Notes: generated from the letters alone by a model not told the origin. DNA of 64,000 bases from an uncultured Candidatus Saccharibacteria bacterium (GCA_964482995.1 CAYZZC010000002.1:1074-65073); one strand, 5' to 3'. Counted from the first letter of the stretch, positions 15,891 through 53,087 are shown. A program made the numbers and translations.

Positions 15891-15932
15891 TGTATTTTTA
15901 TTTTATAATAATTGTTACATAATTACAACTAT

Positions 15933-16889
15933 ATGGAGACAGTACTTGTTACAGGTGGTGCGGGGTTCATAGGATCAAACTTAGTCCACGCTTTGCTTAA
16001 AAAAGGTTATCGTGTTGTTTGTGTCGACAATTTTGATGACACTTATGATCCGCTTTATAAAGAAGAGCATATTGCTCCGTTTATAAACGACCAGCAATTT
16101 GTGTTATACAGGGTTGATATCCGCAATGCACAAGCACTGTATGAAGTGTTTGAAAAAGAGAAACCAATATTGGTTGCACATCTCGCTGCAAAAGCAGACA
16201 CGCGCCACGCAGTTGAGAACCCACACACATATCTTTCAGTAAACATGGACGGCACGCTCAACATCTTGGAACTGTGCAGGAAGTTTGGTGTGCGTATGAC
16301 TGTTGTAGCCTCCTCAGGTTCGGTCTATGGTAACAACCCACACACGCCCTGGAAAGAGGATACACAGACAGACTTGCCACTCTCTGCATACGGTGTCACC
16401 AAAAAGGCCACTGAGATGCTCGCGTACACATACAACCATAATTTTGGAATGAATATTGTTTGTCTTCGCTATTTTAATGTCTACGGGGAAAACAATCGCC
16501 CTTCTATGGTCCCGTACAAATGGGCAAAGGCGTTCCTTGCTGGTGAAGAAATTGAGTTGTCGGGAGAGGGAACTCGCAAAAGAGACTTCACTTATGTGGG
16601 TGATGTGGTCGATGCCACTATCCTTGCGCTTGAGTCTAACTTATCGTATGAGGTCATCAACATCGCCGACAGCAAACCATGCTCGCTCACCGACCTATTT
16701 GCAGTATTTGAAAAAGTAGTTGGGAACACTCCGCCGGTGCGCAAACGCGAGAGCAACAAGGCAAGTGTTAATGAGATGTACGCAGATAGTACGAAGGCCA
16801 AAAAACTATTGGGTTGGGAGCCAAAGGTGTTTCTTGAAGAGGGGATAGAGCGGTTAGTTGCGTGGTACCGTGCGAACCGACTCAAATAA
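15933..16889 (+). CDS. NAD-dependent epimerase/dehydratase (GalE-like UDP-sugar 4-epimerase)
   Basis: METVLVTGGAGFIGSNLVHALLKKGYRVVCVDNF; SAYGVTK (YxxxK). 325 aa. Confidence 0.8.
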   Translation: METVLVTGGAGFIGSNLVHALLKKGYRVVCVDNFDDTYDPLYKEEHIAPFINDQQFVLYRVDIRNAQALYEVFEKEKPILVAHLAAKADTRHAVENPHTYLSVNMDGTLNILELCRKFGVRMTVVASSGSVYGNNPHTPWKEDTQTDLPLSAYGVTKKATEMLAYTYNHNFGMNIVCLRYFNVYGENNRPSMVPYKWAKAFLAGEEIELSGEGTRKRDFTYVGDVVDATILALESNLSYEVINIADSKPCSLTDLFAVFEKVVGNTPPVRKRESNKASVNEMYADSTKAKKLLGWEPKVFLEEGIERLVAWYRANRLK

Positions 16890-30264: not shown

Positions 30265-30309
30265 AGCCCTCGCTCTAACCTTATGGTTGGTGCGGGGGCT
30301 TTTATTTTG
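30265..30309 (+). terminator. Rho-independent terminator (long imperfect hairpin plus T-run)
   Basis: AGCCCTCGCTCTAACC-ttat-GGTTGGTGCGGGGGCT followed by TTTATTTTG. Confidence 0.6.
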
Positions 30310-30946
30310 CAACGGTAAAGAGGAAAAAGAGGTGAGCGGGGTCGTTGGCAAAAGACTTTTTTTCAACCAAATGCAGGCCTGCTTCGCGCGCGTGATTTAA
30401 AAACCACGAGACAGGAGTTCCTTTTTTACCTAACTCCCAATAATGTTCGCCATTAAAGACATGCGTTTTCCAAAAGAAGGGGATTTTGAAAAGTAGTGAA
30501 AAACGTTTTATAAGCGGGACTTTAATAATTGCAGAGAACACATACCCCGGCTGCGGGACTGAGATAACTACCGAGTGTTTTGCTACACGCGTAATTTCTC
30601 TAAGTGCCTGAGGTAGGTCGCTCGTCTCTATGTGCTCGAGAATTTCTGCTGCTATAACGACATCAAACGATTTATCAGGAAGCGGGATATTGGTGACGGA
30701 GCCGAGTATGTCTGGCTTTAAATCCTCTGCGATATCGAGCGTTGTAACTTCAAAACCTCTACGGGTGAGCTCCTGGGCCACCACGCCGCTCCCAACACCC
30801 ACCTCAAGCACTGAGCGGCCTTTTGTCTTTGCAATAAGATCTAGTTGATGAAAATACGAATTCCATCGCTCGAGCGATGTATATGCAAGCCCCAAGTAGT
30901 GAGCCTTGTCTACCTGCGTTTTATAATTTGTTTTTTGATCGTGCAT
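30302..30946 (-). CDS. Class I SAM-dependent methyltransferase
   Basis: VLEVGVGSGVVAQEL (motif I) and DVVIAAEILEHI (motif II/III). Confidence 0.7.
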   Translation of the reverse strand: MHDQKTNYKTQVDKAHYLGLAYTSLERWNSYFHQLDLIAKTKGRSVLEVGVGSGVVAQELTRRGFEVTTLDIAEDLKPDILGSVTNIPLPDKSFDVVIAAEILEHIETSDLPQALREITRVAKHSVVISVPQPGYVFSAIIKVPLIKRFSLLFKIPFFWKTHVFNGEHYWELGKKGTPVSWFLNHAREAGLHLVEKKSFANDPAHLFFLFTVAK

Positions 30947-30985
30947 ATATAGACACCACCTATTTTTACTATATAATGCAGCCTT

Positions 30986-32026
30986 ATGAAAGCCGCTATT
31001 TTGGAGCAGATCGATGCGCCACTTACTGTGGGCGAAGTAGGGCTAACTGAGCTTTTGCGCGGCCAGGTTTTGGTCAAGATTTTAGTGAGCGGTATTTGTG
31101 GCTCGCAACTCCAAGAAATCGCAGGCAACAAAGGTAACGCAAAGTTTCTGCCACACCTGATGGGGCACGAGGGCTGCGGTATTGTCGAGGAGGTGGGTGA
31201 GGGCGTCACCAAGGTAAAAAAAGGAGACAAGGTGGTGATGCACTGGCGTAAAGGTGAAGGAGTCGAAGCAGATTTCCCCACATACACATTCAACGGCAAG
31301 ACAATGAAGAGCGGCAAAGTAACCACTTTTAGTGAACACTCGATTGTTTCAGAAAATCGGGTGACACCGGTGCCCAACGACACACCAAACGACCTATGTG
31401 CACTTTTGGGCTGCTCGCTCTCTACAGCGCTCGGCACTATAAACACCGAGGCAAAAGTACAGCGTGGAGAAAGCGTCATGATTGTGGGGGCGGGAGGTCT
31501 TGGTGCTAATTTAATCAAAGCGGCAAAAATGGCAGGCGCCTCGCCTATTATCTCTGTCGATATTCACGAGCATAAGCGAGAGTCTGCACTTCTACTTGGT
31601 GCAACGCATTTTATAAACGCCGCGACAGAAGGTATTGCAGACGCACTTCTAACACAAACAGGCCTCAAGAGTGTCAGTGTTATTGTCGACACCTCAGGCG
31701 CTAAGAAAAGTTTAGAGAGCACTATCCCGCTCCTTTCTGGTGGCGGGCGCTATATTCTTGTCGGCCAACCAAAACCTGGCGAGACTATTGAGCTTACAAA
31801 CGCGTATCATTTTTTTGACGGAGAAGGGAAGACACTTAAAGCAACACAAGGAGGTGGTTTTATGCCAAGCACGGATATCCCGCGCTACCTCGAGCTGTTT
31901 GCATCTGGCGCGCTCAACATAGACGGCATAATCACGCACCGAATTTCACTCGACCAAATAAATGAAGCAATTGATTTAGTACGAAAGGGGATGGCTGGTC
32001 GGGTTATTATAGACATATCATCATGA
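30986..32026 (+). CDS. Zinc-dependent alcohol dehydrogenase (MDR family)
   Basis: GICGSQLQ, HLMGHEGCGIVEEVGEGV and the GAGGLG Rossmann segment. Confidence 0.8.
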   Translation: MKAAILEQIDAPLTVGEVGLTELLRGQVLVKILVSGICGSQLQEIAGNKGNAKFLPHLMGHEGCGIVEEVGEGVTKVKKGDKVVMHWRKGEGVEADFPTYTFNGKTMKSGKVTTFSEHSIVSENRVTPVPNDTPNDLCALLGCSLSTALGTINTEAKVQRGESVMIVGAGGLGANLIKAAKMAGASPIISVDIHEHKRESALLLGATHFINAATEGIADALLTQTGLKSVSVIVDTSGAKKSLESTIPLLSGGGRYILVGQPKPGETIELTNAYHFFDGEGKTLKATQGGGFMPSTDIPRYLELFASGALNIDGIITHRISLDQINEAIDLVRKGMAGRVIIDISS

Positions 32027-32976
32027 ACAAACTTTTAGAAGCATATAAGCGGATGCTTTTCATACGAGTTGCCGAGCAAGAGCTTGTACAACTGTATCTC
32101 GACAAAAAGTTATTTAGTATGGTGCACTTTTATGTCGGCCAAGAGGCTGTGGCGGTTGGTGTATGCGACGCACTAAAACCCGAGGACAAAGTGATGGGCA
32201 ATCATCGCTCGCACGGGCACTACCTCGCCAAGGGCGGCAACTTCCGCAGGATGGCGTGCGAGCTCCTCGGCCGTGCAAACGGCCTGGCGCACGGCAAGGG
32301 CGGCTCGATGCACATGATCGACAAGTCGGTTAACTTTGTCGGCTCAACCCCGCTTTTGGGGAGCGTTGCGCCGCTTGCAGCCGGTGTTGCGTTTGAACAA
32401 AAGTTTAATAATCGAGACACTATCACTACTGCCTTTTATGGCGACGGCGCCTCAGAAGAGGGCGTGGTGTACGAGACATACAACTTGGCGGCGCTGTACC
32501 AAGTGCCGCTGCTCCTGATTGTTGAAAATAATCTCTTTGCTATCAACTCAAAACTAAAAGACCGCCGCGCGCCCGGCCATACTCTTGAAAAAATTGTATC
32601 AGGGTTCGGTGTCGAGTATAGAAAAGCAGACGGGAACGATTACAAAGACGTGCATGCAAAAGCAAAAGAACTAGCCGACCTTGTCCGCCGAGAAAAGCGG
32701 CCAGCCGTGCTTGAGTGTGTTACCTACCGCCACATGGCGCACTCAACACCCCTTATGGATGAAAAACATCGTGAGGCAGATACGCTTGAAGAGCGCACCA
32801 AGCAAGACCCCCTTACTAAGCTTAAGGCTGAGCTTCTTGCGAGCGGCATTACAGAAGGAGAGCTTGCTACTTTAGAAAAAACATTTAAAGAGGAAGTGCA
32901 GGCTGATATCAATTTCGCGCTCGAGTCGCCGTTCCCCACAAAGGAAGAAATGTATACCGACATGTATGCAGAATAA
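32023..32976 (+). CDS. ThDP-dependent 2-oxoacid dehydrogenase E1 component, alpha subunit (PdhA/AcoA-like)
   Basis: FYVGQEAVAVGV, HRSHGHYLAKG, ThDP motif region YGDGASEEGVVYETYNLAAL. ATGA overlap with the ADH. Confidence 0.85.
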   Translation: MNKLLEAYKRMLFIRVAEQELVQLYLDKKLFSMVHFYVGQEAVAVGVCDALKPEDKVMGNHRSHGHYLAKGGNFRRMACELLGRANGLAHGKGGSMHMIDKSVNFVGSTPLLGSVAPLAAGVAFEQKFNNRDTITTAFYGDGASEEGVVYETYNLAALYQVPLLLIVENNLFAINSKLKDRRAPGHTLEKIVSGFGVEYRKADGNDYKDVHAKAKELADLVRREKRPAVLECVTYRHMAHSTPLMDEKHREADTLEERTKQDPLTKLKAELLASGITEGELATLEKTFKEEVQADINFALESPFPTKEEMYTDMYAE

Positions 32977-34015
32977 TTACAATATGGAACCAAGGATTAT
33001 CAAATACGCCGAGGCGATTAAAGAGGCCACCAAGCAGATACTCGAAAGCGACAAAACCGCTTTTCTTATGGGCCTTGGTGTCCCGCAGGGTGCCGCAGGC
33101 ACTGTCGTGGGGCTTAAAGAGCTCTTCCCCACCCAAGTGCTTGATACACCGACCTCTGAGGCGGCGCTCACCGGGCTAGCGGTCGGGGCGGCTATCAGCG
33201 GCCTGCGCCCCATGGTCTACCATGAGCGCGTTGAGTTTAGCTTGCTCGCCAGCGACGCTATCTTTACCCAGGCTGCAAAATGGAACTACATGTTTGGCGG
33301 CAACAACCCAGTGCCGGTAGTGCTGCGTATTGCCGTTGGCCGACAGTGGGGCAATGGCCCACAGCACTCCCAGGCGCTCTACGGCCTCTTTGGAGCGGTG
33401 CGGGGGCTTAAAGTGGTTATACCCTCGACCCCCCACATGATGAAGGGCCTGCTAATATCCGCTATCCGCGATAACAACCCTGTCGTGATTCTAGAGCCCC
33501 GTTGGCTCTACCAGGTAAAGGGGCATGTGCCAACTGAGATGTTTACTGAGCCGCTCGACCGCGCACGCGTGGTTAAAGAAGGGACTGATCTCACGGTGGT
33601 TGCCTACGGCGACGGTTTTGTAGACACACTTGCTGCGCTCAAGCTCTTGCCGGAGGATATCAGTGTTGAGATGATCGACCTCGTGAGCATCAACCCGATT
33701 GACCACCAAACGATCGCGAAGTCGGTTGAGAAAACAGGCCGGCTTCTGTGTGTCGACAGCACCAACAGCGCATTTAGCATTGGCTCAGAGATAATCGCTA
33801 AAGTAGCGCAAAATCCGGTGGGCTTAACTCAAGCGCCCGTTGGAGTCGCGGCGCCCGATGTGCCGGTGCCCACCTCGCCCGCCTTAAGCGAGTTTTGGTA
33901 CCCAACTAAAATCGACATCGCAAACGCGATTTTGAAAATGTTTGGGAAACCCGAGCTCGATATAAAACTCCCGTTCGAAGAGCTCCACCTTGCCCCGACC
34001 ACCACGCTCGAGTAA
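32966..34015 (+). CDS. 2-oxoacid dehydrogenase E1 component, beta subunit (transketolase-like)
   Basis: Transketolase pyrimidine-binding and C-terminal domain pattern (LMGLGV..., VVIPSTPHMMKGLL, DLTVVAYG). Confidence 0.85.
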   Translation: MQNNYNMEPRIIKYAEAIKEATKQILESDKTAFLMGLGVPQGAAGTVVGLKELFPTQVLDTPTSEAALTGLAVGAAISGLRPMVYHERVEFSLLASDAIFTQAAKWNYMFGGNNPVPVVLRIAVGRQWGNGPQHSQALYGLFGAVRGLKVVIPSTPHMMKGLLISAIRDNNPVVILEPRWLYQVKGHVPTEMFTEPLDRARVVKEGTDLTVVAYGDGFVDTLAALKLLPEDISVEMIDLVSINPIDHQTIAKSVEKTGRLLCVDSTNSAFSIGSEIIAKVAQNPVGLTQAPVGVAAPDVPVPTSPALSEFWYPTKIDIANAILKMFGKPELDIKLPFEELHLAPTTTLE

Positions 34016-34197
34016 ATACAGATTATTTTACTAAAGTGACGACTATATCGCTTGCAGGGAAAAGATAACAAAATCCTGTCATTTCATATACTACTTGGCG
34101 GCGGAGTGACGAGTTTACATACCATTCAATAAGTTTGTTGTAAAAAAAGAAGCGCGATGATTTTTTATCAAAGTTTATTTTTAAGTTCTCAAGCCTG

Positions 34198-34602
34198 CTA
34201 AAGACGAATTCCATAAAAAAAATCTCCGCTTCGGTGGTTCCATATATACGTGCCTTTTGCAAAATAATCGAAAGTAGTAACTGCAAAACGTTTTTTATGT
34301 GTCGGGTCAGTAAAGTTATTACGTGAGGTAAAGTGCGGGACACGGATATGCACCTTGCCGCCTGAGGCGAGGATGCGATGAATATCCTTTAATACAGGGA
34401 TATACTCAACGTGTTCTAAAATATCCTGGCACAAGATTTCATCGAAACTATTATCTGCAAAGGGGAGCGGCAGTTTTTCGATATCGTGTACAACATCAAC
34501 TCCTGGGAGCTGCACTATATTAAGGTTTACCCAGCCTTCTTTAATGTCTGTGCCACAACCAAGGTTGAGTTTGCGTGGAGAGACGGCATTCTTTTTATCC
34601 AT
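34198..34602 (-). CDS. Class I SAM-dependent methyltransferase (Methyltransf_11-like), apparently truncated; remainder continues in another frame to 34023
   Basis: LNLGCGTDIKEGWVNLN, DEILCQDILEHV and GGKVHIRVPH. The ORF stops just after an A8/T8 homopolymer (34215-34222). A -strand ORF in a different frame (34023-34343) then runs on for ~60 codons past the tract. Confidence 0.5.
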   Translation of the reverse strand: MDKKNAVSPRKLNLGCGTDIKEGWVNLNIVQLPGVDVVHDIEKLPLPFADNSFDEILCQDILEHVEYIPVLKDIHRILASGGKVHIRVPHFTSRNNFTDPTHKKRFAVTTFDYFAKGTYIWNHRSGDFFYGIRL

Positions 34603-34625: not shown

Positions 34626-35441
34626 TTACTGAGCGAAGTTGGCGTATTTGTTTTCAAAATACGTTTCTTTGCCAAAGTAATATGGCCAGTCGATACTGTT
34701 GTTTTTGGTGACAATGTGCGGCACGTTAGCAAACCACGCTGCGGTGTTGCTTAAAGTTGTGTTTGTACCAATGACGACACTGCAGGTGGAGAGTAAAAAC
34801 AGGTTAGTCTCGGCGTTCTCAAGGTAGACATGTGTCGTGTACCCTTCAAATATTTTTGCTGCAGGAGCTCGGTCTGAGGCGATCAAAAGCTCTACGTCCC
34901 CTTTATGGAGTTGTTTCTCGCGCATATATTCATCGATAATCTCTCGCACGCGCGTGGATGAGACCAAGAACTCACCGTCCTCGAAGCCCCCAAATGGTAT
35001 GAGTCGTAGATGGACGCCAATTTTTATACGGCCGGTTTTTAGCGGTGCCACAAGACTTTCGATCTTTCTTTGCAGACGAGGTGATGACCCGAATTTTTCT
35101 ATTATCTGCTTTCTGTAGCGCTCGAGCCCAAGTGGGTTTCTAAACATCCAGCCAAAAAAGTAGAGAGTCTCTTGTGCCTCAAGTGCGGGGGGCAAGGCTT
35201 CAGTCGGTGAGAGGAATTTCGGCCCGCCCAAGGCCCATATGCCCGCTTTACCGCGCGTTACTTTGTCTACCATCCATGCATAAAGCGCATACGGCCTACG
35301 CAGTACGCGGTCCTGTTCAAAAAAACTTATATTGACAACCTCTCTACCGCTTTCAATGCCATAGGCATAGATACTCATATCGTTTAGCAGCCGGTTGGCG
35401 TACTCGTGCGCACGATGTTCGATGATAAAAAGCTTTTTCAT
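34626..35441 (-). CDS. Putative glycosyltransferase (fucosyltransferase/GT11-like), low confidence
   Basis: Start MKKLFII abuts the stop of the upstream gene. FFG-W and HLRLIPFGG segments weakly recall GT11. No firm motif. Confidence 0.35.
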   Translation of the reverse strand: MKKLFIIEHRAHEYANRLLNDMSIYAYGIESGREVVNISFFEQDRVLRRPYALYAWMVDKVTRGKAGIWALGGPKFLSPTEALPPALEAQETLYFFGWMFRNPLGLERYRKQIIEKFGSSPRLQRKIESLVAPLKTGRIKIGVHLRLIPFGGFEDGEFLVSSTRVREIIDEYMREKQLHKGDVELLIASDRAPAAKIFEGYTTHVYLENAETNLFLLSTCSVVIGTNTTLSNTAAWFANVPHIVTKNNSIDWPYYFGKETYFENKYANFAQ

Positions 35442-36142
35442 TCTAGTATTGTCCAATTCTTTTTGAGTATGGGGAGCCGCCATGGGGGGTTACTGCGCGC
35501 ATACCGATGTACAAAAAGTTTTTGTTTTGGGTTTTGATAGGGAAGGCAGTCGACTAAAAACATAAATACGGAGTCTACCACGTGTATCTCCTCTGCACGC
35601 TCCATGACCGTGCAATAGTCAAAGATATTATCTGTTAAACTCTTTTCGGCGCGTACTGCAAGGAGGTGTGCCGGCAGTCTTTGAGGCGACATACGCGAAC
35701 CGTAGATAGCGTCGTCGTGGATAAATATATAGGGCTCTTTGGATGTGACACGTGCAAAAAAATCTTGTTCCCGCGTTTGGTCGCGCTGTACATAAAAACT
35801 GCTCCACTTTTTTTCGTGCGGCACGTTTGCCAGCGCGTAAAATTGTCGCTCCGCTGGGATGCCAAGCTCTGTGTCGTCGTAGAGTATTTTGATCTCGTCG
35901 TAGCGCGCGCTACCAAGCTTGAATTTGTTGTAGAAGCGAAAGAATTGCTTATCTCGGTGGTTGTTTGATTTTTCTATTTTGAGATTCTCCAAATCACGAT
36001 ACATAAAGGAGACTGAAGCAAAATAACGGGGGATACAGAAGATCCCGACACGGTCATATTTTTTGCAATATTCACGCACTAAACCGTTGACGATTATGTT
36101 GTCGCCCAGCTTGTTGTGGTGGTCAAGGAGTATGCTAGACAC
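35438..36142 (-). CDS. Hypothetical protein in glycan locus
   Basis: Long ORF co-directional with and abutting the downstream gene. No recognisable motif. Confidence 0.4.
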   Translation of the reverse strand: MSSILLDHHNKLGDNIIVNGLVREYCKKYDRVGIFCIPRYFASVSFMYRDLENLKIEKSNNHRDKQFFRFYNKFKLGSARYDEIKILYDDTELGIPAERQFYALANVPHEKKWSSFYVQRDQTREQDFFARVTSKEPYIFIHDDAIYGSRMSPQRLPAHLLAVRAEKSLTDNIFDYCTVMERAEEIHVVDSVFMFLVDCLPYQNPKQKLFVHRYARSNPPWRLPILKKNWTILE

Positions 36143-36180: not shown

Positions 36181-36954
36181 ATGAAAAAGATACTCGTTAT
36201 AGGCGAAACGTGCCTGGACCGCTTTGTGTATTGCCACGCGGAGCGTCTTGCCCCCGACCTACCTGTGCCAGTTTTGAACGTGATCGAGGAGACGAAGAAC
36301 CCCGGTATGGCCAAAAATGTCGAGCGCAACATCAAGGCGATCTACGAGCATTGCGATCTTATCACCAACCCCGGTTGGGAGGAGGTTACCAAAACGCGCT
36401 ACGTCCACCGCAACTCAAACCACACGTTTATACGCATTGATGCGAACACACACATCGACCGTATCGCTATGCGCGACATGCCGCTCGACGAGTATGAGAT
36501 TGTTGCAATTTCAGACTATAACAAAGGGTTTTTAAAAGAGGAGGACATTCAGGCAATCTGCGAACGGCATGACAAAGTTTTTATTGATACAAAAAAGGTG
36601 CTCGGCGACTGGGCTGCCAAAGCAAAGATAATTAAAATAAACAATTTCGAATACGAGCGCTCCAAACCAAACATTACTCCCGAACTCGCTGAGAAGATTA
36701 TTTGCACCAAAGGTGAGTTTGGGGCGCAGTTTCAGGGCAGATTATATTCTGTTACACCAGCCGAGGTTAAAGACTCCAGTGGTGCCGGAGACTCCTTCTT
36801 TGCGGCGCTTCTGGTACGATACATAGAGACAGGCGACATCGACGAGTCTATCCGTTTTGCTAACGAGTGCGCCTCAAAGGTAGTGGCGCAAAAAGGTATC
36901 ACTGTTATTGAACGACCAAAAAAAGTTACACATGAACAAGGTCAAAACGCTTAA
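36181..36954 (+). CDS. PfkB-family carbohydrate kinase, HldA/RfaE-domain-I-like (D-glycero-beta-D-manno-heptose-7-phosphate kinase)
   Basis: N-terminal MKKILVIGETCLDRF and a C-terminal DSSGAGDSFFAALL anion-hole motif. Immediately followed by an HldC-like gene. Confidence 0.65.
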   Translation: MKKILVIGETCLDRFVYCHAERLAPDLPVPVLNVIEETKNPGMAKNVERNIKAIYEHCDLITNPGWEEVTKTRYVHRNSNHTFIRIDANTHIDRIAMRDMPLDEYEIVAISDYNKGFLKEEDIQAICERHDKVFIDTKKVLGDWAAKAKIIKINNFEYERSKPNITPELAEKIICTKGEFGAQFQGRLYSVTPAEVKDSSGAGDSFFAALLVRYIETGDIDESIRFANECASKVVAQKGITVIERPKKVTHEQGQNA

Positions 36955-37420
36955 AGAGGTCCTGCGTGCAACTAACGCTGCGCGCAAAGAAGGTAAAAAA
37001 ATAGTCGCTACAAACGGCTGTTTTGACATCATGCATGTGGGCCACGTACAAAGCTTTACTCAAGCAAAAAAACTGGGGGATATTTTGGTAGTGGGTATAA
37101 ACTCAGACGCCTCAGTCCGCACCAATAAGGGCGACCTGAGGCCGATAGTCCCCGAGCGCGACCGAGCCACGGTGGTAGCGGCTCTTGCGGTGGTAGACTA
37201 TGTATTTATTTTTCCTGAAAAAACTCCTTTCTCCTGGATAAAAAAGATGCGCCCAGATATCCAGGTGAAGGGTGTTGATACAAAAAACCATCCTGACTTC
37301 GCCGCTCAAAAGCGCACACTCGAAAAAATCGGCGCCAAGTTCGTACTGCTCCCGTTGGTTAAAGGCAAATCAACGACAAAAATTATTGAAAAGATAACCC
37401 GCGCGTACAACAAAAATTAG
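36932..37420 (+). CDS. Cytidylyltransferase-fold adenylyltransferase, HldC/RfaE-domain-II-like (D-beta-D-heptose-1-phosphate adenylyltransferase)
   Basis: IVATNGCFDIMHVGHVQ (HxGH motif) and VVGINSDASVR. Confidence 0.75.
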   Translation: MNKVKTLKEVLRATNAARKEGKKIVATNGCFDIMHVGHVQSFTQAKKLGDILVVGINSDASVRTNKGDLRPIVPERDRATVVAALAVVDYVFIFPEKTPFSWIKKMRPDIQVKGVDTKNHPDFAAQKRTLEKIGAKFVLLPLVKGKSTTKIIEKITRAYNKN

Positions 37421-37794
37421 CTCTTTTTCTGGCTGTCACCCTTGCCGATGCGGTAGGAGTCGCTCTCTTCGTGGGTGGTAGAAACCTCTACAATGACCGA
37501 AGGCTCAAGTGCCACAAGCTGGTGGGGGGTTGAGGGCGGGATATGCACTACGCTGCCAGGCCCAAGCTCGGTTATGATGCGGTCTGCGTTGGCGAGGTTG
37601 TAGTACCTTAGCTCTAGTTTGCCATCGAGCACATACCAAGCCTCATCTTTTTTCTTGTGGTAGTGGTCGCTAAACGTGGCTCCCTTGTTAAACTTAAGGA
37701 GCTTGCCGCAGTACTTCTCGGTATTGATGATCCATATCTCGGCCCCCCAGCCCTTGGGGTGTATCTCCGCCTGTAGTATCTCTAAGTCGCTCAT
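37417..37794 (-). CDS. Cupin-domain protein (possible sugar isomerase/epimerase)
   Basis: GKLELRYY...GPGSVVHIPPSTPHQL is a two-motif cupin signature. 125 aa. Confidence 0.55.
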   Translation of the reverse strand: MSDLEILQAEIHPKGWGAEIWIINTEKYCGKLLKFNKGATFSDHYHKKKDEAWYVLDGKLELRYYNLANADRIITELGPGSVVHIPPSTPHQLVALEPSVIVEVSTTHEESDSYRIGKGDSQKKS

Positions 37795-39950: not shown

Positions 39951-40181
39951 ATGGACACCCTCAAACACATTTTCTCCTCAATTCTTGGTGTGCCTGAGGC
40001 GCGCGTTGTGGACTCGCTCTCGCCAGAGAACACCGCAACTTGGGATTCGCTCAATGCGATTATTTTACTCACCGAGATAGAGAAGGCCTTTAACGTGAAG
40101 TTTACGTTCGACGAGGCGATGGCAGTAAAGAATTTTGGCGGGGCCGTGGCACTTATCCGCTCTAAAGGTGGCAAAGTATAA
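39951..40181 (+). CDS. Acyl carrier protein (discrete, 76 aa)
   Basis: TWDSLNAIILLTEIEKAF contains the DSL phosphopantetheine-attachment serine; ATG 2 nt after the fkbH-like stop. Confidence 0.75.
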   Translation: MDTLKHIFSSILGVPEARVVDSLSPENTATWDSLNAIILLTEIEKAFNVKFTFDEAMAVKNFGGAVALIRSKGGKV

Positions 40182-43985: not shown

Positions 43986-45055
43986 CAATCCATTACTTTA
44001 CCTTTAGCAATGTGCAGGGCGGCTCCTCCCGGCAGCGCGCATTTCGAGTCGTAGATGAGCTGCGCGCGCGCGGGCTCTCAGTCGTTATTCATACACCTCC
44101 CGTACTCGATATATCGCGCACGCGTTGGCCAAAAAAATTCTTGCTTATATTGCAGGTAGTCCGCTCACTCTTTTCGATCAAAAAGGGTGACATTATTTAC
44201 CTACAGCGCACGATCTCAAACAAATATTTTTTTGTGATTATGGTTGCGTATATTTGGTTTTTTAGACGGAAAATGATTTTTGACCTTGACGACCCGGTCT
44301 GGCTCCATAGCTTTTTTAAGACAAAAATGTTTACTAAGATGGCTGATGTTGTTGTCACTTGCTCACATGCACAAGCTGAGTGGGCGAGACAGTTTAATAA
44401 AAACGTACACATAATCCACATCGCCCTTGACCTTGCGGCCTACAAAAAATTCACCAAAGACTATACTACCAAATCGACTCCTGTGGTAATTGGGTGGGTA
44501 GGGACTGGGCCCGAGCACCTTTATAACCTCCAAGATCTCGCAGCTGTTTTTGAACAACTTTTAAAAAAGAGCCCCATCCCGTTTAAGTTTGTGCTTATCG
44601 GAGCGCTCAAAAACAAAAAGGTGTATGAGGTATTTCAAACTATTCCTGGCCTCAATGTCGAGTTTATAGACGCGCTTGACTGGAACAACCCCGAGAGCGT
44701 GCCGCGAGAGATCCAAAAATTTGATATTGGTGTCCTACCGCACAAAGCGGAGGGTGAGTGGAACAAGGCTAAAACCTCTTTCAAGATCCTTGAGTACATG
44801 GCGTGCGGGGTTGCCTCAGTGGTGAGCGATTTTGGCGAGATGCCGTACATTGTCACTGACGGCACAAACGGCTTTCTCTCTTCTTCTCAAGAGGAGTGGG
44901 CAGAGAAGTTGGAGCAGCTCATTGCAGACAAAGATTTGCGTGCGCGGCTTGGGAAGGCTGGGCAAGAGCGAGTGCGAGAAGAATATTCTTTTGACGCAAT
45001 TATCCCGCGGCTTATAGAAATTTTTAAGACTCTCGAGCGTGTGCCCAATCGATAA
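43982..45055 (+). CDS. Glycosyltransferase family 4/1
   Basis: C-terminal FKILEYMACGVASVVSDFGEMPYIVTDGTNGFL (EX7E region). Confidence 0.7.
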   Translation: MTIHYFTFSNVQGGSSRQRAFRVVDELRARGLSVVIHTPPVLDISRTRWPKKFLLILQVVRSLFSIKKGDIIYLQRTISNKYFFVIMVAYIWFFRRKMIFDLDDPVWLHSFFKTKMFTKMADVVVTCSHAQAEWARQFNKNVHIIHIALDLAAYKKFTKDYTTKSTPVVIGWVGTGPEHLYNLQDLAAVFEQLLKKSPIPFKFVLIGALKNKKVYEVFQTIPGLNVEFIDALDWNNPESVPREIQKFDIGVLPHKAEGEWNKAKTSFKILEYMACGVASVVSDFGEMPYIVTDGTNGFLSSSQEEWAEKLEQLIADKDLRARLGKAGQERVREEYSFDAIIPRLIEIFKTLERVPNR

Positions 45056-45740
45056 CCTCTTTGAGTGAGTTGCGCGTTCCTGCGTCAGACCAAAACCCAG
45101 TGTGTATATGGTGTGCACAGCGACCGTTGGTGACGTACCAGTTGTTTACGTCGGTAAGCTCTAACTCGCCACGAGCAGATGGTTTGAGGGTAGGGATAAT
45201 ATCAAATACGTTTGGCGGGTAGATGTAGAAACCGGTGACCGCGTAGTTGCTCTTAGGCTCTTTCGGCTTTTCTTCTATGCCGACAATCTTTCCATCCTTA
45301 AGTTCCGGTACGCCAAAGCGCGAGGCGTCCGGCACGAGCGATAAAAATAGCATCGCGTCTGTAGAACCGACGCTCGGTGGCAAGGTGGCAGGGAAGGCAG
45401 TGTAATCAAATATATTGTCACCAAGAATAACCGCGACAGAGTCTGACCCCACAAAGTCTTTGGCCAAGCTCAGCGCTTGTGCGATGCCGCCGGCCTCTTT
45501 TTGAACACGGTAGGTGAGCTGCACTCCGTAGTCGGAGCCGTCGCCTAGAAACTCCGCAATAGAGCCTATATGGTCGCCACCAGTTACGATCATGATATCC
45601 GTGATGCCCGCATATTTGAGCGTCTCAAGCGGGTAGAGGATCATGGGGCGGTTAAGGATGGGCACCATGTGCTTGTTTATAGTAAAAGTCGCCGGCTGAA
45701 GCCGAGTCCCTTTACCCCCCGCTAATATGAGACCTTTCAT
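45024..45740 (-). CDS. rmlA: Glucose-1-phosphate thymidylyltransferase-like nucleotidyltransferase (short RmlA-type)
   Basis: MKGLILAGGKGTRLQP...PMI signature and AVILGDNIF. Confidence 0.75.
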   Translation of the reverse strand: MKGLILAGGKGTRLQPATFTINKHMVPILNRPMILYPLETLKYAGITDIMIVTGGDHIGSIAEFLGDGSDYGVQLTYRVQKEAGGIAQALSLAKDFVGSDSVAVILGDNIFDYTAFPATLPPSVGSTDAMLFLSLVPDASRFGVPELKDGKIVGIEEKPKEPKSNYAVTGFYIYPPNVFDIIPTLKPSARGELELTDVNNWYVTNGRCAHHIHTGFWSDAGTRNSLKEVIDWAHARES

Positions 45741-45805
45741 AACGCTCAGAGTTATAACAGATAACAAGAGACAAGTACACAGGTTTCTGGTATTGTCGAT
45801 CCATT

Positions 45806-46816
45806 ATGAAAGGCACCATTTTTGTCACTGGCGGAGCTGGGTTCATTGGCTCTAATTTCATTAGATATGTGTTGTCTAGGCACCCATTAGCAAAAGTCGT
45901 TTGTCTTGACGCTCTTACGTACGCCGGCAATAAGGATAACCTAAAGGGTCTGCCTGCTAAGCGCTTCATATTTGTAAAAGGCGATATTGCCGATAAGGCA
46001 GTAGTAGCTCGTATCTTAAAAAAACATAAACCCGTTTATGTAGTACATTTTGCCGCAGAGTCGCATGTCGACCGTAGTATCCACGGCGGCGCAGAGGCAT
46101 TTTTCCATACCAATGTGCTTGGTACTGCGGCGCTCCTAGGCGTACTTAAAGGTGTTCCTTCTATTAAAAAAATAGTACATGTCTCGACCGACGAGGTGTA
46201 TGGTGCTCTGCCGCTCAAAGGTGGCAATAAATTTACCGAAGAGTCGCCCCTGCTCCCCAACTCTCCCTATGCAGCATCCAAAGCGGCATCTGACCTAGTG
46301 GCACGCTCATATTTTAAAACCTATGGTCTCCCAGTTGTTATCACGCGTTGTTCCAACAACTACGGCCCGTATCAGTATCCGGAAAAACTGATCCCTTTCT
46401 CAATTACTCGGCTTATGGAGGGGAAATCAATCACAATATATGGTGATGGACAGTATGTCCGGGACTGGATCCATGTTGAGGATCATTCCAGCGCAATCCT
46501 ACTCGCTTTAGAAAAAGGGGCTCCTGGTGAGATATATAACATAGGCGCGGATGATGAGTTTAGTAATCTTACTCTCGCACGACGTTTGCTCAAATATTTT
46601 AAAAAAGGTGAGTCTGCAATTACTTATGTCAAAGACCGGCCTGGGCATGACCGCCGCTACGCTATCGATGCTTCGAAGATTAAACGCGAACTCGGGTGGA
46701 AGCCAAAACACACGTTTAACAAGTCATTTGAAACAACGGTAGCGTGGTATGTTGAACATAAGGACTGGATGAAAAAAGCTCTCCTGCGTACAGGCAGAGC
46801 TAATACCCACCTATAA
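45806..46816 (+). CDS. rmlB: dTDP-glucose 4,6-dehydratase
   Basis: IFVTGGAGFIGSNF, HFAAESHVDRS, STDEVYG, YAASKAASD. Confidence 0.85.
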   Translation: MKGTIFVTGGAGFIGSNFIRYVLSRHPLAKVVCLDALTYAGNKDNLKGLPAKRFIFVKGDIADKAVVARILKKHKPVYVVHFAAESHVDRSIHGGAEAFFHTNVLGTAALLGVLKGVPSIKKIVHVSTDEVYGALPLKGGNKFTEESPLLPNSPYAASKAASDLVARSYFKTYGLPVVITRCSNNYGPYQYPEKLIPFSITRLMEGKSITIYGDGQYVRDWIHVEDHSSAILLALEKGAPGEIYNIGADDEFSNLTLARRLLKYFKKGESAITYVKDRPGHDRRYAIDASKIKRELGWKPKHTFNKSFETTVAWYVEHKDWMKKALLRTGRANTHL

Positions 46817-46817
46817 T

Positions 46818-47360
46818 ATGTCTTCCCTTACTAAAACAGTACTTGCATTTCCTGATGTATTTCTCATAACAACTGCTGTGCGGGAGGATGTGCGGGGCAA
46901 TTCTCTCACTATGTATGATGAAGAAGAGTTCGCTAAGCTTGGTATTACAGCATGCTTTGTACAGGACTATGTATCATTCTCAAAAAAAGGAGTTATCCGC
47001 GGTCTTCATTATCAAAAGCCTCCGCATGCGCAAGATAAATTAATCCGCCCCGCGACAGGCAAAGTGCTCGACGTAGTAGCTGTATACGACCAAGCATCAC
47101 CTGATTTCGGCAAATATATTTCTGTAGAGCTCGATGCAAAAAAAGGTGAGATGCTTTTTGTACCTGGTACCTATGCACACGGTTTTTGTGTGCTCAGTGA
47201 TGAGGGGGCACTCGTTGAGTATAAATTAAGTGATGGATATCATCCCGAGTTGGCGGGTGGAGTCAGATGGGACGATCCTTTATTTATGGTTGCGTGGCCT
47301 ACCTCTGATCCGCTATTGTCTCCCCAGGATGTTGCGTGGCCCCTTCTCATCAAAGCATAA
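46818..47360 (+). CDS. rmlC: dTDP-4-dehydrorhamnose 3,5-epimerase
   Basis: DVRGNSL, RGLHYQKPPHAQDKLIR and GFCVLSDEGALVEYK motifs. 180 aa. Confidence 0.85.
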   Translation: MSSLTKTVLAFPDVFLITTAVREDVRGNSLTMYDEEEFAKLGITACFVQDYVSFSKKGVIRGLHYQKPPHAQDKLIRPATGKVLDVVAVYDQASPDFGKYISVELDAKKGEMLFVPGTYAHGFCVLSDEGALVEYKLSDGYHPELAGGVRWDDPLFMVAWPTSDPLLSPQDVAWPLLIKA

Positions 47361-47362
47361 TT

Positions 47363-48211
47363 ATGACTGTATCGCGCGATAAAATTCTCACTACAGGGGC
47401 AGGAGGTATGTTGGGCAGCTATGCCAATTTTGGTATAAAAACTACCCGCGATATGCTCAACGTAGAAGACCTCTCTCAAGTGCGCGCTTTGTTTATGCAA
47501 AGCAGGCCCTCAGTGATTTTTCATTTTGCTGCAGCGACAAATTTGGTTGAGTGTGAAAAAGACCCTACAGGAACATACAGAGCAAATGCTGTCGGTACCT
47601 ATAACATTGCTCTTGCCGCACGTGAAATAGGAGCAAAACTGGTGTATGTATCTACCTCTGCAATCTTTGACGGCAAAAAAGAGGCTCCGTATCTGGAGAA
47701 TGATATACCCAGCCCTCAGAACCATTATGGTCATTCTAAATATATGGGAGAGCTAGTTGTAGAGAGTATGTTGCCCGATGCTGTTATTGCTCGCACCTGT
47801 TGGATGTTTGGCGGCGGCCCCGACAAGGATCACAAATTTGTTGCGAATATTTTAAAACAATTGGAAAAACCAAAAATTGAAGTCATCGGTGGCAAGCGCG
47901 GCTCCCCCACCTACGGCAAGGATTTTGTCGAAGCACTCATTACTCTTGTTGAGGAAGAGAAGGGAGGTATATTTCATGTGGTGAACGAAGGATCACCTAC
48001 ACGAGTTGAAATTGCTCGCGAAATTGTAAAGATCGCTAGAGCCTCGTCCAAGGTCGTTGAAGCAGATTCAGCAGTGTTTGAAAAACAATACCCTGGAGCG
48101 GGTGCACGTGGTAATGAGAGTATTGCTTCAACAAAAATCACTTTGCGTCCATGGCAGGAAGCATTGGCAGAATATATCAACACAGAGTGGAAGAGGAAGA
48201 TTATTTCCTAA
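47363..48211 (+). CDS. rmlD: dTDP-4-dehydrorhamnose reductase
   Basis: ILTTGAGGMLGS, FHFAAAT, YGHSKYMGE (YxxxK), GIFHVVNEG. Confidence 0.8.
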   Translation: MTVSRDKILTTGAGGMLGSYANFGIKTTRDMLNVEDLSQVRALFMQSRPSVIFHFAAATNLVECEKDPTGTYRANAVGTYNIALAAREIGAKLVYVSTSAIFDGKKEAPYLENDIPSPQNHYGHSKYMGELVVESMLPDAVIARTCWMFGGGPDKDHKFVANILKQLEKPKIEVIGGKRGSPTYGKDFVEALITLVEEEKGGIFHVVNEGSPTRVEIAREIVKIARASSKVVEADSAVFEKQYPGAGARGNESIASTKITLRPWQEALAEYINTEWKRKIIS

Positions 48212-48215
48212 GATC

Positions 48216-49100
48216 ATGAAAGAAACCCCAGACATTTCTATAGTGGTTTTAAATTGGAATACTTCATACCTGCTTACAAGAGCACTTGAGTCTATTATTT
48301 CTGCAGCAGGCGATATCAACTATGAAGTTATTGTGATCGACAACGCCTCGACCGACGGGGGGTTTAAGCATGTGCCAGAAAATATCCGTCATAATCCTCG
48401 TTTTACTTTCATACAGAACGAAAAGAATTTAGGATGGGCGGCTATCAATATCATGCTTGAGCAATCGCATACAAAATACATTGCGACCATAGATCCTGAT
48501 GCACTTCTTCGTCCAGGCGCACTCCAATCTCTCTATAGGTTTATGGAAGAGCACCCAGAAGCGGGAGCAGCAACAGCGTCACTTTTTAATCCAGATGGTT
48601 CCCCTCAGCTCTATTATCGTCGTATCATGACGCCCTCGATATATTTCTTCACTACGATTATCGGGAGAGTTATCGATAAATACCTGCTTAACCTCAGGCG
48701 TTGGAAACAATATCGTTATGAAGACCTTAATATTAATGTCCTTTCAGAAGTAGAGCAGCCAGCATGGCCATGCCTTATGTGGCGGCGCGAAGCACTTGGC
48801 ACATATATCGTTGATGAACAAATCCCTTTTTATTTTCTTGACGTTGAGATGAGTAGGAGCTTGTATAACCGAGGATATAAAATATATCTTGTACCCGACG
48901 CTACGATTACCCACCTCAAGTCGACCTCCTATAATAAGAAAGAAAGCTCATGGCGTCGGAAGGAGTATAACCGCAGCCTTATGGTATATTTTAAAAAGCA
49001 CTATCCATTTTCTGCTCCATTGGTATGGGTTGCAGCATGGATCGACCGAGCACTCAGAGCCTTGTCCCGAGCTTTTCTTGGCCGAGAACCGTTGCGATGA
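48216..49100 (+). CDS. Glycosyltransferase family 2
   Basis: ISIVVLNWN...VIVIDNASTDG and IDPDAL (DxD) motifs. Confidence 0.75.
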   Translation: MKETPDISIVVLNWNTSYLLTRALESIISAAGDINYEVIVIDNASTDGGFKHVPENIRHNPRFTFIQNEKNLGWAAINIMLEQSHTKYIATIDPDALLRPGALQSLYRFMEEHPEAGAATASLFNPDGSPQLYYRRIMTPSIYFFTTIIGRVIDKYLLNLRRWKQYRYEDLNINVLSEVEQPAWPCLMWRREALGTYIVDEQIPFYFLDVEMSRSLYNRGYKIYLVPDATITHLKSTSYNKKESSWRRKEYNRSLMVYFKKHYPFSAPLVWVAAWIDRALRALSRAFLGREPLR

Positions 49101-50332
49101 ATATGGAAGATTGTATTTATAAGACAACCTGTCGGGTGTGCGAAGGAAGCGGCCTTGTTGAGGTGCTTAACTTAGGTTCAACTCCGCCTGCAAACGCATA
49201 TCTTAGCCAAGAAGATTTGGATAAGCCAGAAAAATATTTTCCTTTGGTTCTATATTTTTGTCGGACTTGCTCACTCCTTCAGTTACGCCATGTGGTGAAC
49301 CCTGAGATCCTCTTTAAGGATTATCATTTTTTAACTGGCGCAAGCTCACCCTCAGTCGCACATTTTAAGGAGTATGCCGAAAAAGTGATATTGCCACTTA
49401 TTACTTCGCCTAACGATCTTTTAATAGATATCGGCGGCAATGACGGCGTTCTGCTCAGTTATATAAAGGATAAAGCTCGCGTACTCAATGTTGACCCGGC
49501 TGACAACCTCGCCTCCATTTCAGAAGAGAGGGGTGTGCCATTTTATCCGGCGTTTTTTACATCACAAACAGCGGACGAGCTGCTAGAGAAATTTGGTGAA
49601 GCAAAAGTGGTGACCGCAAACAACGTGTTTGCTCACACGGACCCTATTCGAAATGTGTTCGAGGGAGTAGCAAAACTTATTGGTGAAAATGGTACGTTTA
49701 TATTTGAAGTTCATTGGGCGAAGCATCTTGTAGATGAAAGCGCTTTCGACCAGATATATCACGAGCATCTTTGTTTTTACTCGCTGCACGCACTAAAAAT
49801 GTTAGTAGAAGGGGCGGGTATGCAGATATTTGATGTTGAGATAGTCCCGGCACAAGGCAAGTCGCTGCGTGTCTATACTGCGAAGAGCCGCGCGCCAAGC
49901 GAAAACGTTACTCGCGTTCTTGCTGAGGAAAAAGCTGCAGGGCTCACAAACGAAGCAACTTACCACGCGTTTGCACAACATGTGGAAGAAAATAAAAAGA
50001 AGGTTGTCTCACTACTCAAAGAGCTAAAAAGCAAAGGTAAAAAAATAGTGGGCTATGGCGCCCCAGCAAAGAGCAACACACTCCTTAATTATTATGGTGT
50101 CGGCAAAGAAACACTCGACTATTTAACTGACACGACAACTCTCAAGCAAGGGCTCTTTAGTCCTGGGACACACATACCAATCGTCTCTCCAGATAGGCTT
50201 TTGACTGATACTCCAGATTACATACTACTTCTCGCATGGAACTTTAAAGACGCTATTTTAGAGAAAGAAAAAGCGCTTCGAGCAAAGGGCGTAAAATTTA
50301 TTGTCACTGTGCCTAGAGTAGAAATTATATAA
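49097..50332 (+). CDS. NDP-hexose C-methyltransferase family (TylC3/EvaC-like) with N-terminal zinc-binding domain
   Basis: CRVCEGS...CRTC Cys4 motif, LIDIGGNDGVLL SAM motif, and a C-terminal HLCFYSLHAL...VYT block of the C-methyltransferase family. ATGA overlap with the GT2. Confidence 0.7.
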   Translation: MNMEDCIYKTTCRVCEGSGLVEVLNLGSTPPANAYLSQEDLDKPEKYFPLVLYFCRTCSLLQLRHVVNPEILFKDYHFLTGASSPSVAHFKEYAEKVILPLITSPNDLLIDIGGNDGVLLSYIKDKARVLNVDPADNLASISEERGVPFYPAFFTSQTADELLEKFGEAKVVTANNVFAHTDPIRNVFEGVAKLIGENGTFIFEVHWAKHLVDESAFDQIYHEHLCFYSLHALKMLVEGAGMQIFDVEIVPAQGKSLRVYTAKSRAPSENVTRVLAEEKAAGLTNEATYHAFAQHVEENKKKVVSLLKELKSKGKKIVGYGAPAKSNTLLNYYGVGKETLDYLTDTTTLKQGLFSPGTHIPIVSPDRLLTDTPDYILLLAWNFKDAILEKEKALRAKGVKFIVTVPRVEII

Positions 50333-52322: not shown

Positions 52323-53087
52323 ATGCTAAATAGCTATAATTTAAAGCGAAAAACAGTCCTTGTGACTGGCGCATGCGGGCAAATTGGCCAGGCATTGGTG
52401 CTAGCGCTCCTTAAAAACGGTGCATATGTCTATGGCGTTGATGTGGTGCCCGCGGTTGACTCCAAGTTTAAAAAGCTCTTAGCGCCCTACGCTCGTCGCT
52501 TTTCATACATTGCAGCAGATATTACCAGCGAGCGCAAAATTAAAGCAATGCTACGCGCTCTCAAGCGCCCAGTAGATGTGCTTATCAACTGTGCCGGGGT
52601 CGGTGTCTATACACCGTTTGAGAAGCGCACCGAGGAAGAACTCGACCGCGTCATAAACCTCAACCTAAAAGGCACGATCTTTATGTCCAAGGCCATTTCA
52701 AAAGACATGGCAAAGAGAAAGAAGGGCACTATCATAAATTTCGGTTCGGTTTATGGTGTGGCAGTGCCGGACTTTCGCATCTACGGCGACTCTGGCAGAA
52801 ACAGTTCTGAGATTTATAGCGCAACAAAAGCAGGCATTATACATCTGACAAAATATCTGGCTGTCTATTTGGCGAAGCATGGGGTTAGGGTTAACGCTAT
52901 TTCCCCTGGAGGTGTATTTAACAACCAGGCAGACTTTTTTGTGAAAAATTACGAATATAAGACGCCGATTGGTCGTATGGCTACGCCGGATGATCTTGTG
53001 GGAGCCATACTGTTTTTAGCCTCAGACGATGCTCGTTACATAACCGGGCAAAATATTGTTGTAGATGGAGGATTCACCTTATGGTAA
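52323..53087 (+). CDS. SDR-family oxidoreductase
   Basis: VLVTGACGQIGQAL, NCAGVG, YSATKAGI. Confidence 0.8.
   Translation: MLNSYNLKRKTVLVTGACGQIGQALVLALLKNGAYVYGVDVVPAVDSKFKKLLAPYARRFSYIAADITSERKIKAMLRALKRPVDVLINCAGVGVYTPFEKRTEEELDRVINLNLKGTIFMSKAISKDMAKRKKGTIINFGSVYGVAVPDFRIYGDSGRNSSEIYSATKAGIIHLTKYLAVYLAKHGVRVNAISPGGVFNNQADFFVKNYEYKTPIGRMATPDDLVGAILFLASDDARYITGQNIVVDGGFTLW

Follow-up and report, generated by a model that had tools for sequence, protein, structure and literature searches.

A thiamine diphosphate-dependent E1 alpha/beta pair with heptose-type partners in a Saccharibacteria glycan locus: a candidate sugar carboligase of Patescibacteria

Introduction

What does a two-subunit E1 enzyme resembling pyruvate dehydrogenase do in a bacterial glycan locus that encodes none of the partners with which such enzymes usually work? 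The question is raised by a stretch of 64,000 nucleotides from an uncultured Candidatus Saccharibacteria bacterium (GCA_964482995.1, CAYZZC010000002.1:1074-65073; the whole stretch is hereafter called the window), in which a thiamine diphosphate (ThDP)-dependent E1 alpha/E1 beta pair is encoded behind a zinc alcohol dehydrogenase (ADH) of the medium-chain dehydrogenase/reductase (MDR) type. A preliminary description of the window, made from the sequence alone, had suggested that the pair attaches a two-carbon (C2) branch to a keto-sugar nucleotide and that the ADH may then reduce this branch. According to the analysis reported here, the E1 pair most likely serves to attach a two-carbon unit to a sugar of the surface glycan, not to oxidise pyruvate, and its conserved gene partners point to a sugar of the heptose type.

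The use of stand-alone E1 alpha/beta enzymes for the formation of C-C bonds on sugars is already known. The class with which the preliminary description had compared the pair does exist, being represented by the alpha-KADH2 enzymes AviB1/B2, Pau11/12, those of the aldgamycin pathway and KbDH-alpha/beta, which carry an acetyl group from pyruvate to a sugar ketone and so place C2 acetyl branches on keto-sugars; the evidence is genetic for aldgamycin and in vitro for KbDH-alpha/beta (kibdelomycin), the functions of AviB1/B2 and Pau11/12 being proposed (PMC12247030, PMC4753412). The acetyl branch is later reduced (often), methylated or transaminated, and about 120 clusters of this kind have been recognised (PMC12247030, PMC4753412).

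The E1 pair and the absence of E2 and E3 partners

The four genes of the preliminary description were recovered as open reading frames (ORFs) with the domains that it had given. The E1 alpha subunit (E1alpha, 317 aa; 32023-32976, plus strand; Pfam PF00676, 3.9e-61) is followed by the E1 beta subunit (E1beta, 343 aa; 32984-34015, plus strand, with an alternative start at 32966), which matches Transket_pyr and Transketolase_C with 4.6e-24 and 3.4e-24, respectively. Upstream lies the MDR zinc ADH (346 aa; 30986-32026, plus strand; Pfam ADH_N and ADH_zinc_N), and divergent from these three is the gene of an S-adenosylmethionine (SAM)-dependent methyltransferase (214 aa; 30302-30946, minus strand; Pfam Methyltransf_11, 3e-15), so that the ADH is the first gene of the operon ADH-E1alpha-E1beta. 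The ATGA overlaps by which the genes were said to be translationally coupled are borne out at the ADH/E1alpha junction only (32023-32026, with ATG at 32023-25 and TGA at 32024-26); E1alpha ends with TAA (32974-76), and E1beta begins either at 32966, with an 11-nt overlap, or at 32984 according to the gene callers, after a 7-nt gap. The composition of the region is unremarkable.

The ThDP/Mg motif (GDG...NN) is present in the E1 pair, and E1alpha gives, besides, weak matches to DXS_N and transketolase_N. The ADH retains the candidate catalytic zinc ligands, namely the Cys in SGICGS, the His in GHEGCG and the Cys in LLGCSL, and lacks the Cys lobe of the structural zinc; among solved structures, class III ADHs come nearest, with no more than about 150 bits. 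The divergent methyltransferase, whose top NCBIfam match is the oligosaccharide methyltransferase MftM with 50 bits, far under the cutoff, is a probable sugar O-methyltransferase, and a divergent methyltransferase upstream of the ADH occurs also in three related loci (L004, L006, L093).

The claim that the window holds no E2 or E3 gene was confirmed in two ways. Pfam annotation, which covered nearly all window ORFs that reach 150 aa without overlapping a longer one, gave no 2-oxoacid_dh, Biotin_lipoyl or E3_binding domain, and the phmmer search of the six-frame translation of the window with six E2/E3/lipoyl reference proteins gave no match at E<=1e-3. These queries were the annotated proteins of six plasmid-borne E1 loci of the pyruvate dehydrogenase (PDH), acetoin dehydrogenase (Aco) and branched-chain 2-oxoacid dehydrogenase (BCKDH) types. 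The absence extends beyond the window: a scan of species-representative genomes returned 561 relatives, 80 loci were kept, and in none of these 80 (L001-L085) was an E2, E3 or lipoyl match found in six frames within about 10 kb, whereas all six control E1 loci showed such a match, each within 2 kb.

The family scores are in line with this. E1alpha reaches 298.3 bits against TIGR03182 (NCBIfam, PDH E1 alpha), under the cutoff of 393.85, and E1beta 243.6 bits against PRK09212 (NCBIfam), under the cutoff of 321; the top family matches of both subunits are PDH E1 alpha and beta. The identity of E1alpha is about 38% to the alpha-proteobacterial PdhA and 27-35% to other E2-linked references. It is thus supported that the window E1 pair belongs to no nearby 2-oxoacid dehydrogenase complex.

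Clade structure and the fixed ADH-E1alpha-E1beta module

The closest relatives of the window E1alpha (60-89% identity) are very numerous, and those that bear a name are Patescibacteria (candidate phyla radiation, CPR), such as Kaiserbacteria and Parcubacteria. The clade to which it belongs, designated here as clade A (54-86% identity), was recovered in 199/200 neighbor-joining (NJ) bootstraps and consists of many CPR lineages with a few Cyanobium, gammaproteobacterial, verrucomicrobial and planctomycete assemblies; at 50% clustering it collapses into very few representatives, and that search is uninformative on the size of the clade. The distant clade B (37-41% identity) includes Nitrospirota, Planctomycetota, Bdellovibrionota and others. 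Together, clades A and B are split from six E2-linked references in 190/200 NJ bootstraps of E1alpha. In addition, the E1beta subunits of both clades are extended at the C-terminus by about 20 aa and carry a PTSxAL motif, and neither feature occurs in five E2-linked reference E1betas. In classical E1 enzymes, E2 docks on the C-terminal domain of E1beta, and the extension may be a sign of the loss of this docking.

Synteny was counted in the 44-45 clade A loci with enough sequence, 30 loci being fully flanked. The ADH lies directly upstream of E1alpha on the same strand in 38/44 loci, including six in which the two are fused in frame, and E1beta adjoins E1alpha in 45/45. The ADH-E1alpha fusion proteins, of about 660 aa, come from several CPR lineages (L018, L029, L038, L055, L058), and in the one that was read residue by residue (L038, 8957-10942) the junction is continuous. 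ADH, E1alpha and E1beta form, therefore, a fixed module in clade A, and the functional tie between the E1 pair and the ADH, supposed from a single locus, gains from both the adjacency and the fusions. A PfkB-family kinase follows immediately after E1beta in 22/45 loci, and in the window three minus-strand genes sit between the two. Two further apparent fusions were not used as evidence: that of E1beta with a short-chain dehydrogenase/reductase (SDR) in L073, the N-terminus of which is a wrong-frame, high-GC read-through, and that of an ADH in L057, where only the C-terminal ADH half stands behind an unrelated region.

A sub-branch of clade A (L043, L044, L046, L051, L053, L054) has no ADH; there, E1alpha and E1beta are followed by a conserved 520-aa protein with class I aminotransferase-like motifs and by two proteins of about 295 and 410 aa.

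Among still more distant E1alpha relatives (33-38% identity; P0408, P0468, P0452, P0432), N-terminal fusions were found to an NDP-sugar (NDP, nucleoside diphosphate) epimerase/dehydratase SDR, a GHMP sugar kinase, a CTP_transf_like nucleotidyltransferase and CoA_binding_3, and classical lipoyl-E1alpha fusions occur among them too. Two of these proteins, P0408 and P0468, had been suspected from their length to be ADH-E1alpha fusions, but BLASTP revealed no ADH, and Pfam identified an SDR-E1alpha and a GHMP-kinase-E1alpha protein. The fusions to sugar enzymes provide independent support for a sugar role of the family.

The loci of clade B are elaborate sugar-modification clusters, with SIS proteins, a reversed nucleotidyltransferase-PfkB fusion, several RmlB/GalE-like SDRs, C-methyltransferases, B12-radical SAM enzymes and split transketolase-like pairs, and an ADH orthologue is present in 8/26 of them. 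Two clade B loci contain a pair which resembles by eye, and was not confirmed by Pfam, the DmpG/DmpF-type 4-hydroxy-2-oxovalerate aldolase and acetaldehyde dehydrogenase (L059:13193-15057, L064:11246-13124). One or two extra split transketolase-like pairs also stand beside the clade B E1 pair, as in L061 (1759-3596 and 14981-16932), which hints at multiple ThDP-dependent C-C steps on one sugar.

Glycan setting and heptose-type neighbours

The setting of the operon in a glycan locus, as first described, was likewise confirmed, with glycosyltransferases, methyltransferases and nucleotide-sugar genes found in the window, and it recurs across many lineages. The glycan island spans from about 9 kb to the end of the 64-kb window and encodes GT1, GT2, GT9, GT47 and PMT_2 transferases, many methyltransferases, RmlABCD, a NeuB fusion, a CMP-sugar synthetase, an ATP-binding cassette (ABC) exporter and a B12-radical SAM enzyme.

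Downstream of the E1 pair, two genes resemble the halves of HldE. The PfkB-family sugar kinase (36181-36954, plus strand) is closest to HldE domain I, the heptose-7-phosphate kinase (TIGR02198 rfaE_dom_I, 4.3e-33), with 114.8 bits against a cutoff of 345, the next family being ribokinase at 33 bits. The nucleotidyltransferase that follows it (36932-37420, plus strand) is closest to HldE domain II, the heptose-1-phosphate adenylyltransferase (TIGR02199 rfaE_dom_II, 3.1e-50), with 169.7 bits against a cutoff of 181.5, versus 44.6 bits for glycerol-3-phosphate cytidylyltransferase (TagD). In the fully flanked clade A loci, the kinase is linked to the module in 19/30, the nucleotidyltransferase is present in 13/30 and a SIS protein is linked in 9/30.

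Between E1beta and the kinase, a compact GT-B glycosyltransferase of 234 aa (35438-36142, minus strand, GTG start) has the GT9 (heptosyltransferase) fold; public gene calls start it at 36079 (213 aa), and the GTG at 36142 was chosen because the N-terminus conserved in homologues, with its xLGDxI motif, needs it. This family of mini-glycosyltransferases with the GT9 fold was found only in Patescibacteria/CPR or metagenome records. Next to it is a GT11/NodZ-like glycosyltransferase of the fucosyltransferase superfamily (271 aa; 34626-35441, minus strand), assigned by the Pfam matches of its family members: the window copy itself has no Pfam match, while 4/12 members match Glyco_transf_11 (best 4.6e-5) and one matches NodZ. 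It accompanies the E1 operon in at least 12 clade A loci. The third gene of this group, a second SAM methyltransferase (34023-34602, minus strand; Methyltransf_11, 1.9e-9), is split in two frames (134 and about 63 aa), with the frame switch near 34213-34240 as located by tblastn with intact homologues from L014 and L058, and with an A8 tract at about 34213-34220. Three independent assemblies show the identical split, which could reflect a pseudogene, phase variation or an error common to the assemblies. After the nucleotidyltransferase comes a small cupin (125 aa; 37417-37794, minus strand; Cupin_2, 7e-11; weak WbuC-family match, 31 bits), possibly a sugar isomerase/epimerase accessory, the gene of which recurs beside the operon in seven loci (L006, L007, L009, L015, L034, L040, L042).

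Candidate genes for the remaining steps of heptose activation appear in related loci. Over the 80 scanned loci, SIS was found in 11 of clade A and 10 of clade B, and HAD in 5 and 1, respectively; both occur in L004 and L092, and SIS in L093. In a Kaiserbacteria locus, ADH-E1alpha-E1beta-PfkB is surrounded by SIS, HAD, nucleotidyltransferase, GT9 and methyltransferase genes. The assembly of a Cyanobium sp. combines ADH-E1alpha-E1beta and PfkB with SIS and with a fusion of nucleotidyltransferase and HAD, and in another related locus the five-gene operon is accompanied by two GT9 genes, methyltransferases, Wzx, Wzy and SIS. By contrast, RmlA is near the module in only 2/55 clade A and 1/27 clade B loci, and RmlC in 0/55 of clade A; an RmlB-like SDR is present in about 21-23/55 clade A and 19/27 clade B loci. 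The SDRs of the window are at 9105-10001, 15912-16889 and 45806-46816, none of them within the conserved operon. The conserved clade A partners are, therefore, heptose-type genes and not those of dTDP- or CDP-6-deoxyhexoses, which makes a classical NDP-4-keto-6-deoxyhexose the less likely acceptor.

Proposed reaction and rival explanations

The reaction that best fits these data, with a probability of about one half, is that of an alpha-KADH2-type carboligase by which a heptose nucleotide receives a C2 unit from pyruvate, the ADH performing the coupled redox step. The E1 alpha2beta2 enzyme would bind ThDP and form the hydroxyethyl-ThDP carbanion by decarboxylation of a 2-oxo acid, of which pyruvate is the likeliest, and the C2 unit would then pass to a sugar carbonyl carbon in an acyloin-type carboligation instead of to lipoyl-E2, giving a sugar branched or extended by an acetyl or 1-hydroxyethyl group. 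The NAD-dependent MDR ADH may either oxidise a sugar hydroxyl to the acceptor carbonyl or reduce the acetyl group to 1-hydroxyethyl. As the partners are the HldE-like kinase and adenylyltransferase and GT9-like transferases, the substrate is likely a heptose nucleotide and not an NDP-4-keto-6-deoxyhexose, most probably ADP-heptose or a close analogue. The product would be O-methylated and then moved by the GT9-fold and GT11-like glycosyltransferases into the cell-surface glycan of this Patescibacteria organism. Gene content, the absence of nearby E2/E3, clade structure, synteny, the fusions and the GT9 fold are results of the analysis; which donor and acceptor are used, where the sugar is attacked and in which direction the ADH works is inferred. 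A more specific version can be put forward only tentatively, namely that, in a widespread route, the ADH-E1 enzyme oxidises ADP-heptose and adds the pyruvate-derived C2 unit to yield a C2-branched or chain-extended, nonose-level heptose, which the mini GT9-fold transferases place as a glycan signature of Patescibacteria, shared by some cyanobacteria and other bacteria.

Several points weigh against this heptose carboligation. To our knowledge, no C2-branched or C2-extended heptose is known, and none was found in the literature searched. The 64-kb window has no homologue of GmhA (SIS) or GmhB (HAD), and the kinase scores far under the HldE cutoff, so that the sugar which is activated may differ from a canonical heptose. 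Since the 4,6-dehydratase-type SDR lies outside the conserved clade A operon, the ADH must be supposed to provide the acceptor carbonyl. The window E1 keeps the catalytic His residues that serve lipoyl acylation in classical E1s; these active-site histidines do not discriminate between the models. E2 and E3 could sit elsewhere in the genome, beyond the window.

The rival explanations differ from the transfer of C2 units to a heptose nucleotide in the step, the acceptor or the pathway. It is unlikely, though less so than the other two, that E1 acts before activation on a sugar phosphate or acid, either in a DXS-/transketolase-like condensation of a 2-oxo-acid-derived unit with an aldose phosphate or in the non-oxidative decarboxylation of a 2-keto-3-deoxy sugar acid, the product being an unusual (deoxy)heptose or alditol phosphate that the ADH reduces and the PfkB kinase and nucleotidyltransferase activate. 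The order ADH-E1alpha-E1beta-kinase-nucleotidyltransferase could indeed form a complete linear route, for which the lack of GmhA and GmhB in the window, the linkage of the kinase oftener than of SIS (19 versus 9 of 30 loci), the weak DXS_N and transketolase_N matches and the fusions of E1alpha relatives to a GHMP kinase and a nucleotidyltransferase also speak. However, the larger-genome non-CPR carriers (L050, L052, L092, L093) keep a GmhA-like SIS, which fits the ordinary sedoheptulose-7-phosphate route, the nucleotidyltransferase is near the HldE-II equivalog score and far from TagD, and we know of no E1-family enzyme with such an activity. Rather improbable is the same carboligase acting on a dTDP-4-keto-6-deoxyhexose made by RmlA and RmlB of the island, with the ADH reducing the branch to 1-hydroxyethyl in a yersiniose- or paulomycose-like octose; this is the reading closest to the preliminary description. 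RmlA (minus strand), RmlB, RmlC and RmlD are indeed encoded in the same window with an NDP-hexose C-methyltransferase (45024-50332), and all characterised or proposed alpha-KADH2 and YerE-type enzymes act on NDP-keto-deoxyhexoses or analogues (PMC12247030, PMC4753412); but these genes are 11 kb away and, by the counts given above, not conserved with the module, the constant partners of which are the HldE-like kinase/adenylyltransferase and the GT9-fold transferases.

A role in energy metabolism would make the pair the E1 of a pyruvate or acetoin dehydrogenase with E2 and E3 elsewhere, or a decarboxylase-type E1. The ADH, acting on butanediol or ethanol, would then keep the redox state of a fermentation in balance, and its place in the glycan island would be coincidental. 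The best family matches of both subunits, the conserved catalytic His and the label of acetoin:DCPIP oxidoreductase subunit given by JGI to some homologues would agree with it, and MDR ADHs include butanediol dehydrogenases. It is, however, highly improbable in view of the lack of E2, E3 and lipoyl genes in the window and in all related loci as compared with the controls, the scores of both subunits under the PDH E1 cutoffs, the fusions of relatives to sugar-pathway enzymes and the position of the clade apart from the E2-linked references; moreover, the synteny with heptose and glycosyltransferase genes is kept across phyla, including the phototrophic Cyanobium. Other functions take the remaining probability.

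Other features of the window and of the reference loci

Further downstream, the segment 37881-43985 encodes a Dlt-like acylation module with a phosphopantetheinyl transferase, an FkbH-domain loader (TIGR01686, 305 bits), a small acyl carrier protein (ACP; about 39951-40181), a MaoC dehydratase, an SDR, an MBOAT protein and an unassigned 398-aa protein, which suggests that glyceryl or hydroxyacyl groups are attached to a surface polymer by way of the ACP. A functional link of this FkbH/ACP/MBOAT module with the E1 pair was set aside because it accompanies the operon in only two related loci (L006, L042). At 53081-55501, an 806-aa fusion combines an FAD amine-oxidase/UDP-galactopyranose-mutase-like part with NeuB (nonulosonic acid synthase) and SAF, and is followed by a 2-hydroxyacid-dehydrogenase-like protein and then by the CMP-sugar synthetase. 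Upstream of the island, the segment 4267-9074 encodes a putative glycosyl hydrolase (DUF4015), a capsule-synthesis protein (PGA_cap), a type IV coupling ATPase similar to TraG/TrwB and a protein with a lamin-tail domain.

A locus on a plasmid of Streptomyces sp. NBC_01384 (L094, 9803-14469), with the gene order E1alpha-E1beta-E2-like-FkbH, was considered as an AviB-like reference and rejected; because an E2-like gene and an FkbH gene adjoin its E1 pair, it is of a different, ACP-loading type. This pair apparently feeds an ACP-loading pathway, which would be a third use of E1 pairs outside central metabolism.

Significance of the clade

In the literature searched, no described link of heptose genes with E1 enzymes, nor any description of CPR E1 genes, was found. 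Undescribed, to judge from the searchable literature, are the clade itself, its predominance in CPR genomes and the way in which it is constantly paired, or even fused, with an MDR ADH and set in a module for heptose-type activation and transfer. The E1 genes of Patescibacteria are routinely annotated as pyruvate or acetoin dehydrogenase subunits and may, therefore, be misread as central-carbon or fermentative metabolism. The analysis indicates that the clade is one of glycan-tailoring enzymes, by which metabolic reconstructions of the reduced Patescibacteria genomes would be corrected, and labels such as PDH or acetoin dehydrogenase E1 are not to be taken there as energy metabolism. If the heptose carboligation is true, alpha-KADH2 chemistry would extend from actinomycete antibiotics to environmental surface glycans with a new class of acceptor, and a new sugar would be predicted in CPR envelopes, with a bearing on host attachment and phage recognition. 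The cultured carrier Cyanobium sp. (GCA_024345815.1) renders the idea experimentally testable.

Comparison with known systems

With PdhAB, AcoAB and BkdAB, the window pair shares the two-subunit architecture, the GDG...NN motif, the active-site histidines and 27-38% identity, and it differs from them in the absence of an E2/E3/lipoyl partner, the scores below cutoff, the separate clade, the C-terminal extension of E1beta and the glycan context. The resemblance to the ADP-heptose pathway (GmhA, HldE, GmhB) lies in the kinase and nucleotidyltransferase, whose best matches are the HldE domains, in the GT9 transferases nearby and in the SIS and HAD genes of related loci. Unlike in that pathway, the HldE domains are separate genes, GmhA and GmhB are missing from the window, the kinase is strongly diverged, and an ADH/E1 module is inserted.

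The parallel with YerE drawn in the preliminary description stands for the mechanism and falls for the fold. YerE/YerF of yersiniose and ErwE/ErwF/ErwI/ErwJ of erwiniose biosynthesis follow the same logic, in which a ThDP-bound acyl anion is added to an NDP-4-keto sugar of a surface glycan and reduction with NAD(P)H follows. However, YerE-type enzymes, whose acceptor is a CDP-3,6-dideoxy-4-keto-hexose, are single-chain members of the decarboxylase (acetolactate-synthase-like) superfamily and not E1 alpha/beta enzymes (PMC12247030), and the resemblance is only mechanistic because of this different fold family; in Pfam, the window pair has only E1_dh and transketolase-type domains, without the TPP_enzyme_N/M/C architecture of YerE. 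The DmpG/DmpF-like pair of clade B recalls ErwI/ErwJ, the aldolase/acetaldehyde dehydrogenase pair that supplies the 2-oxo-acid donor in erwiniose biosynthesis (PMC9306805).

Closest in kind are the alpha-KADH2 systems of avilamycin, paulomycin, aldgamycin and kibdelomycin, which, like the present one, place a heteromeric E1 alpha/beta enzyme without E2/E3 in a sugar cluster, the likeness being one of architecture and context. Those examples come from actinomycete antibiotic clusters and act on NDP-keto-deoxyhexoses or pentoses, whereas clade A occurs mainly in Patescibacteria, with some cyanobacterial and other metagenome-assembled genomes, in surface-glycan loci, and is linked with genes for HldE-like heptose activation and with GT9-fold transferases. 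As its constant partner it has, finally, an MDR zinc ADH, sometimes fused to E1alpha, while Pau7 of the paulomycin pathway is an aldo-keto reductase.

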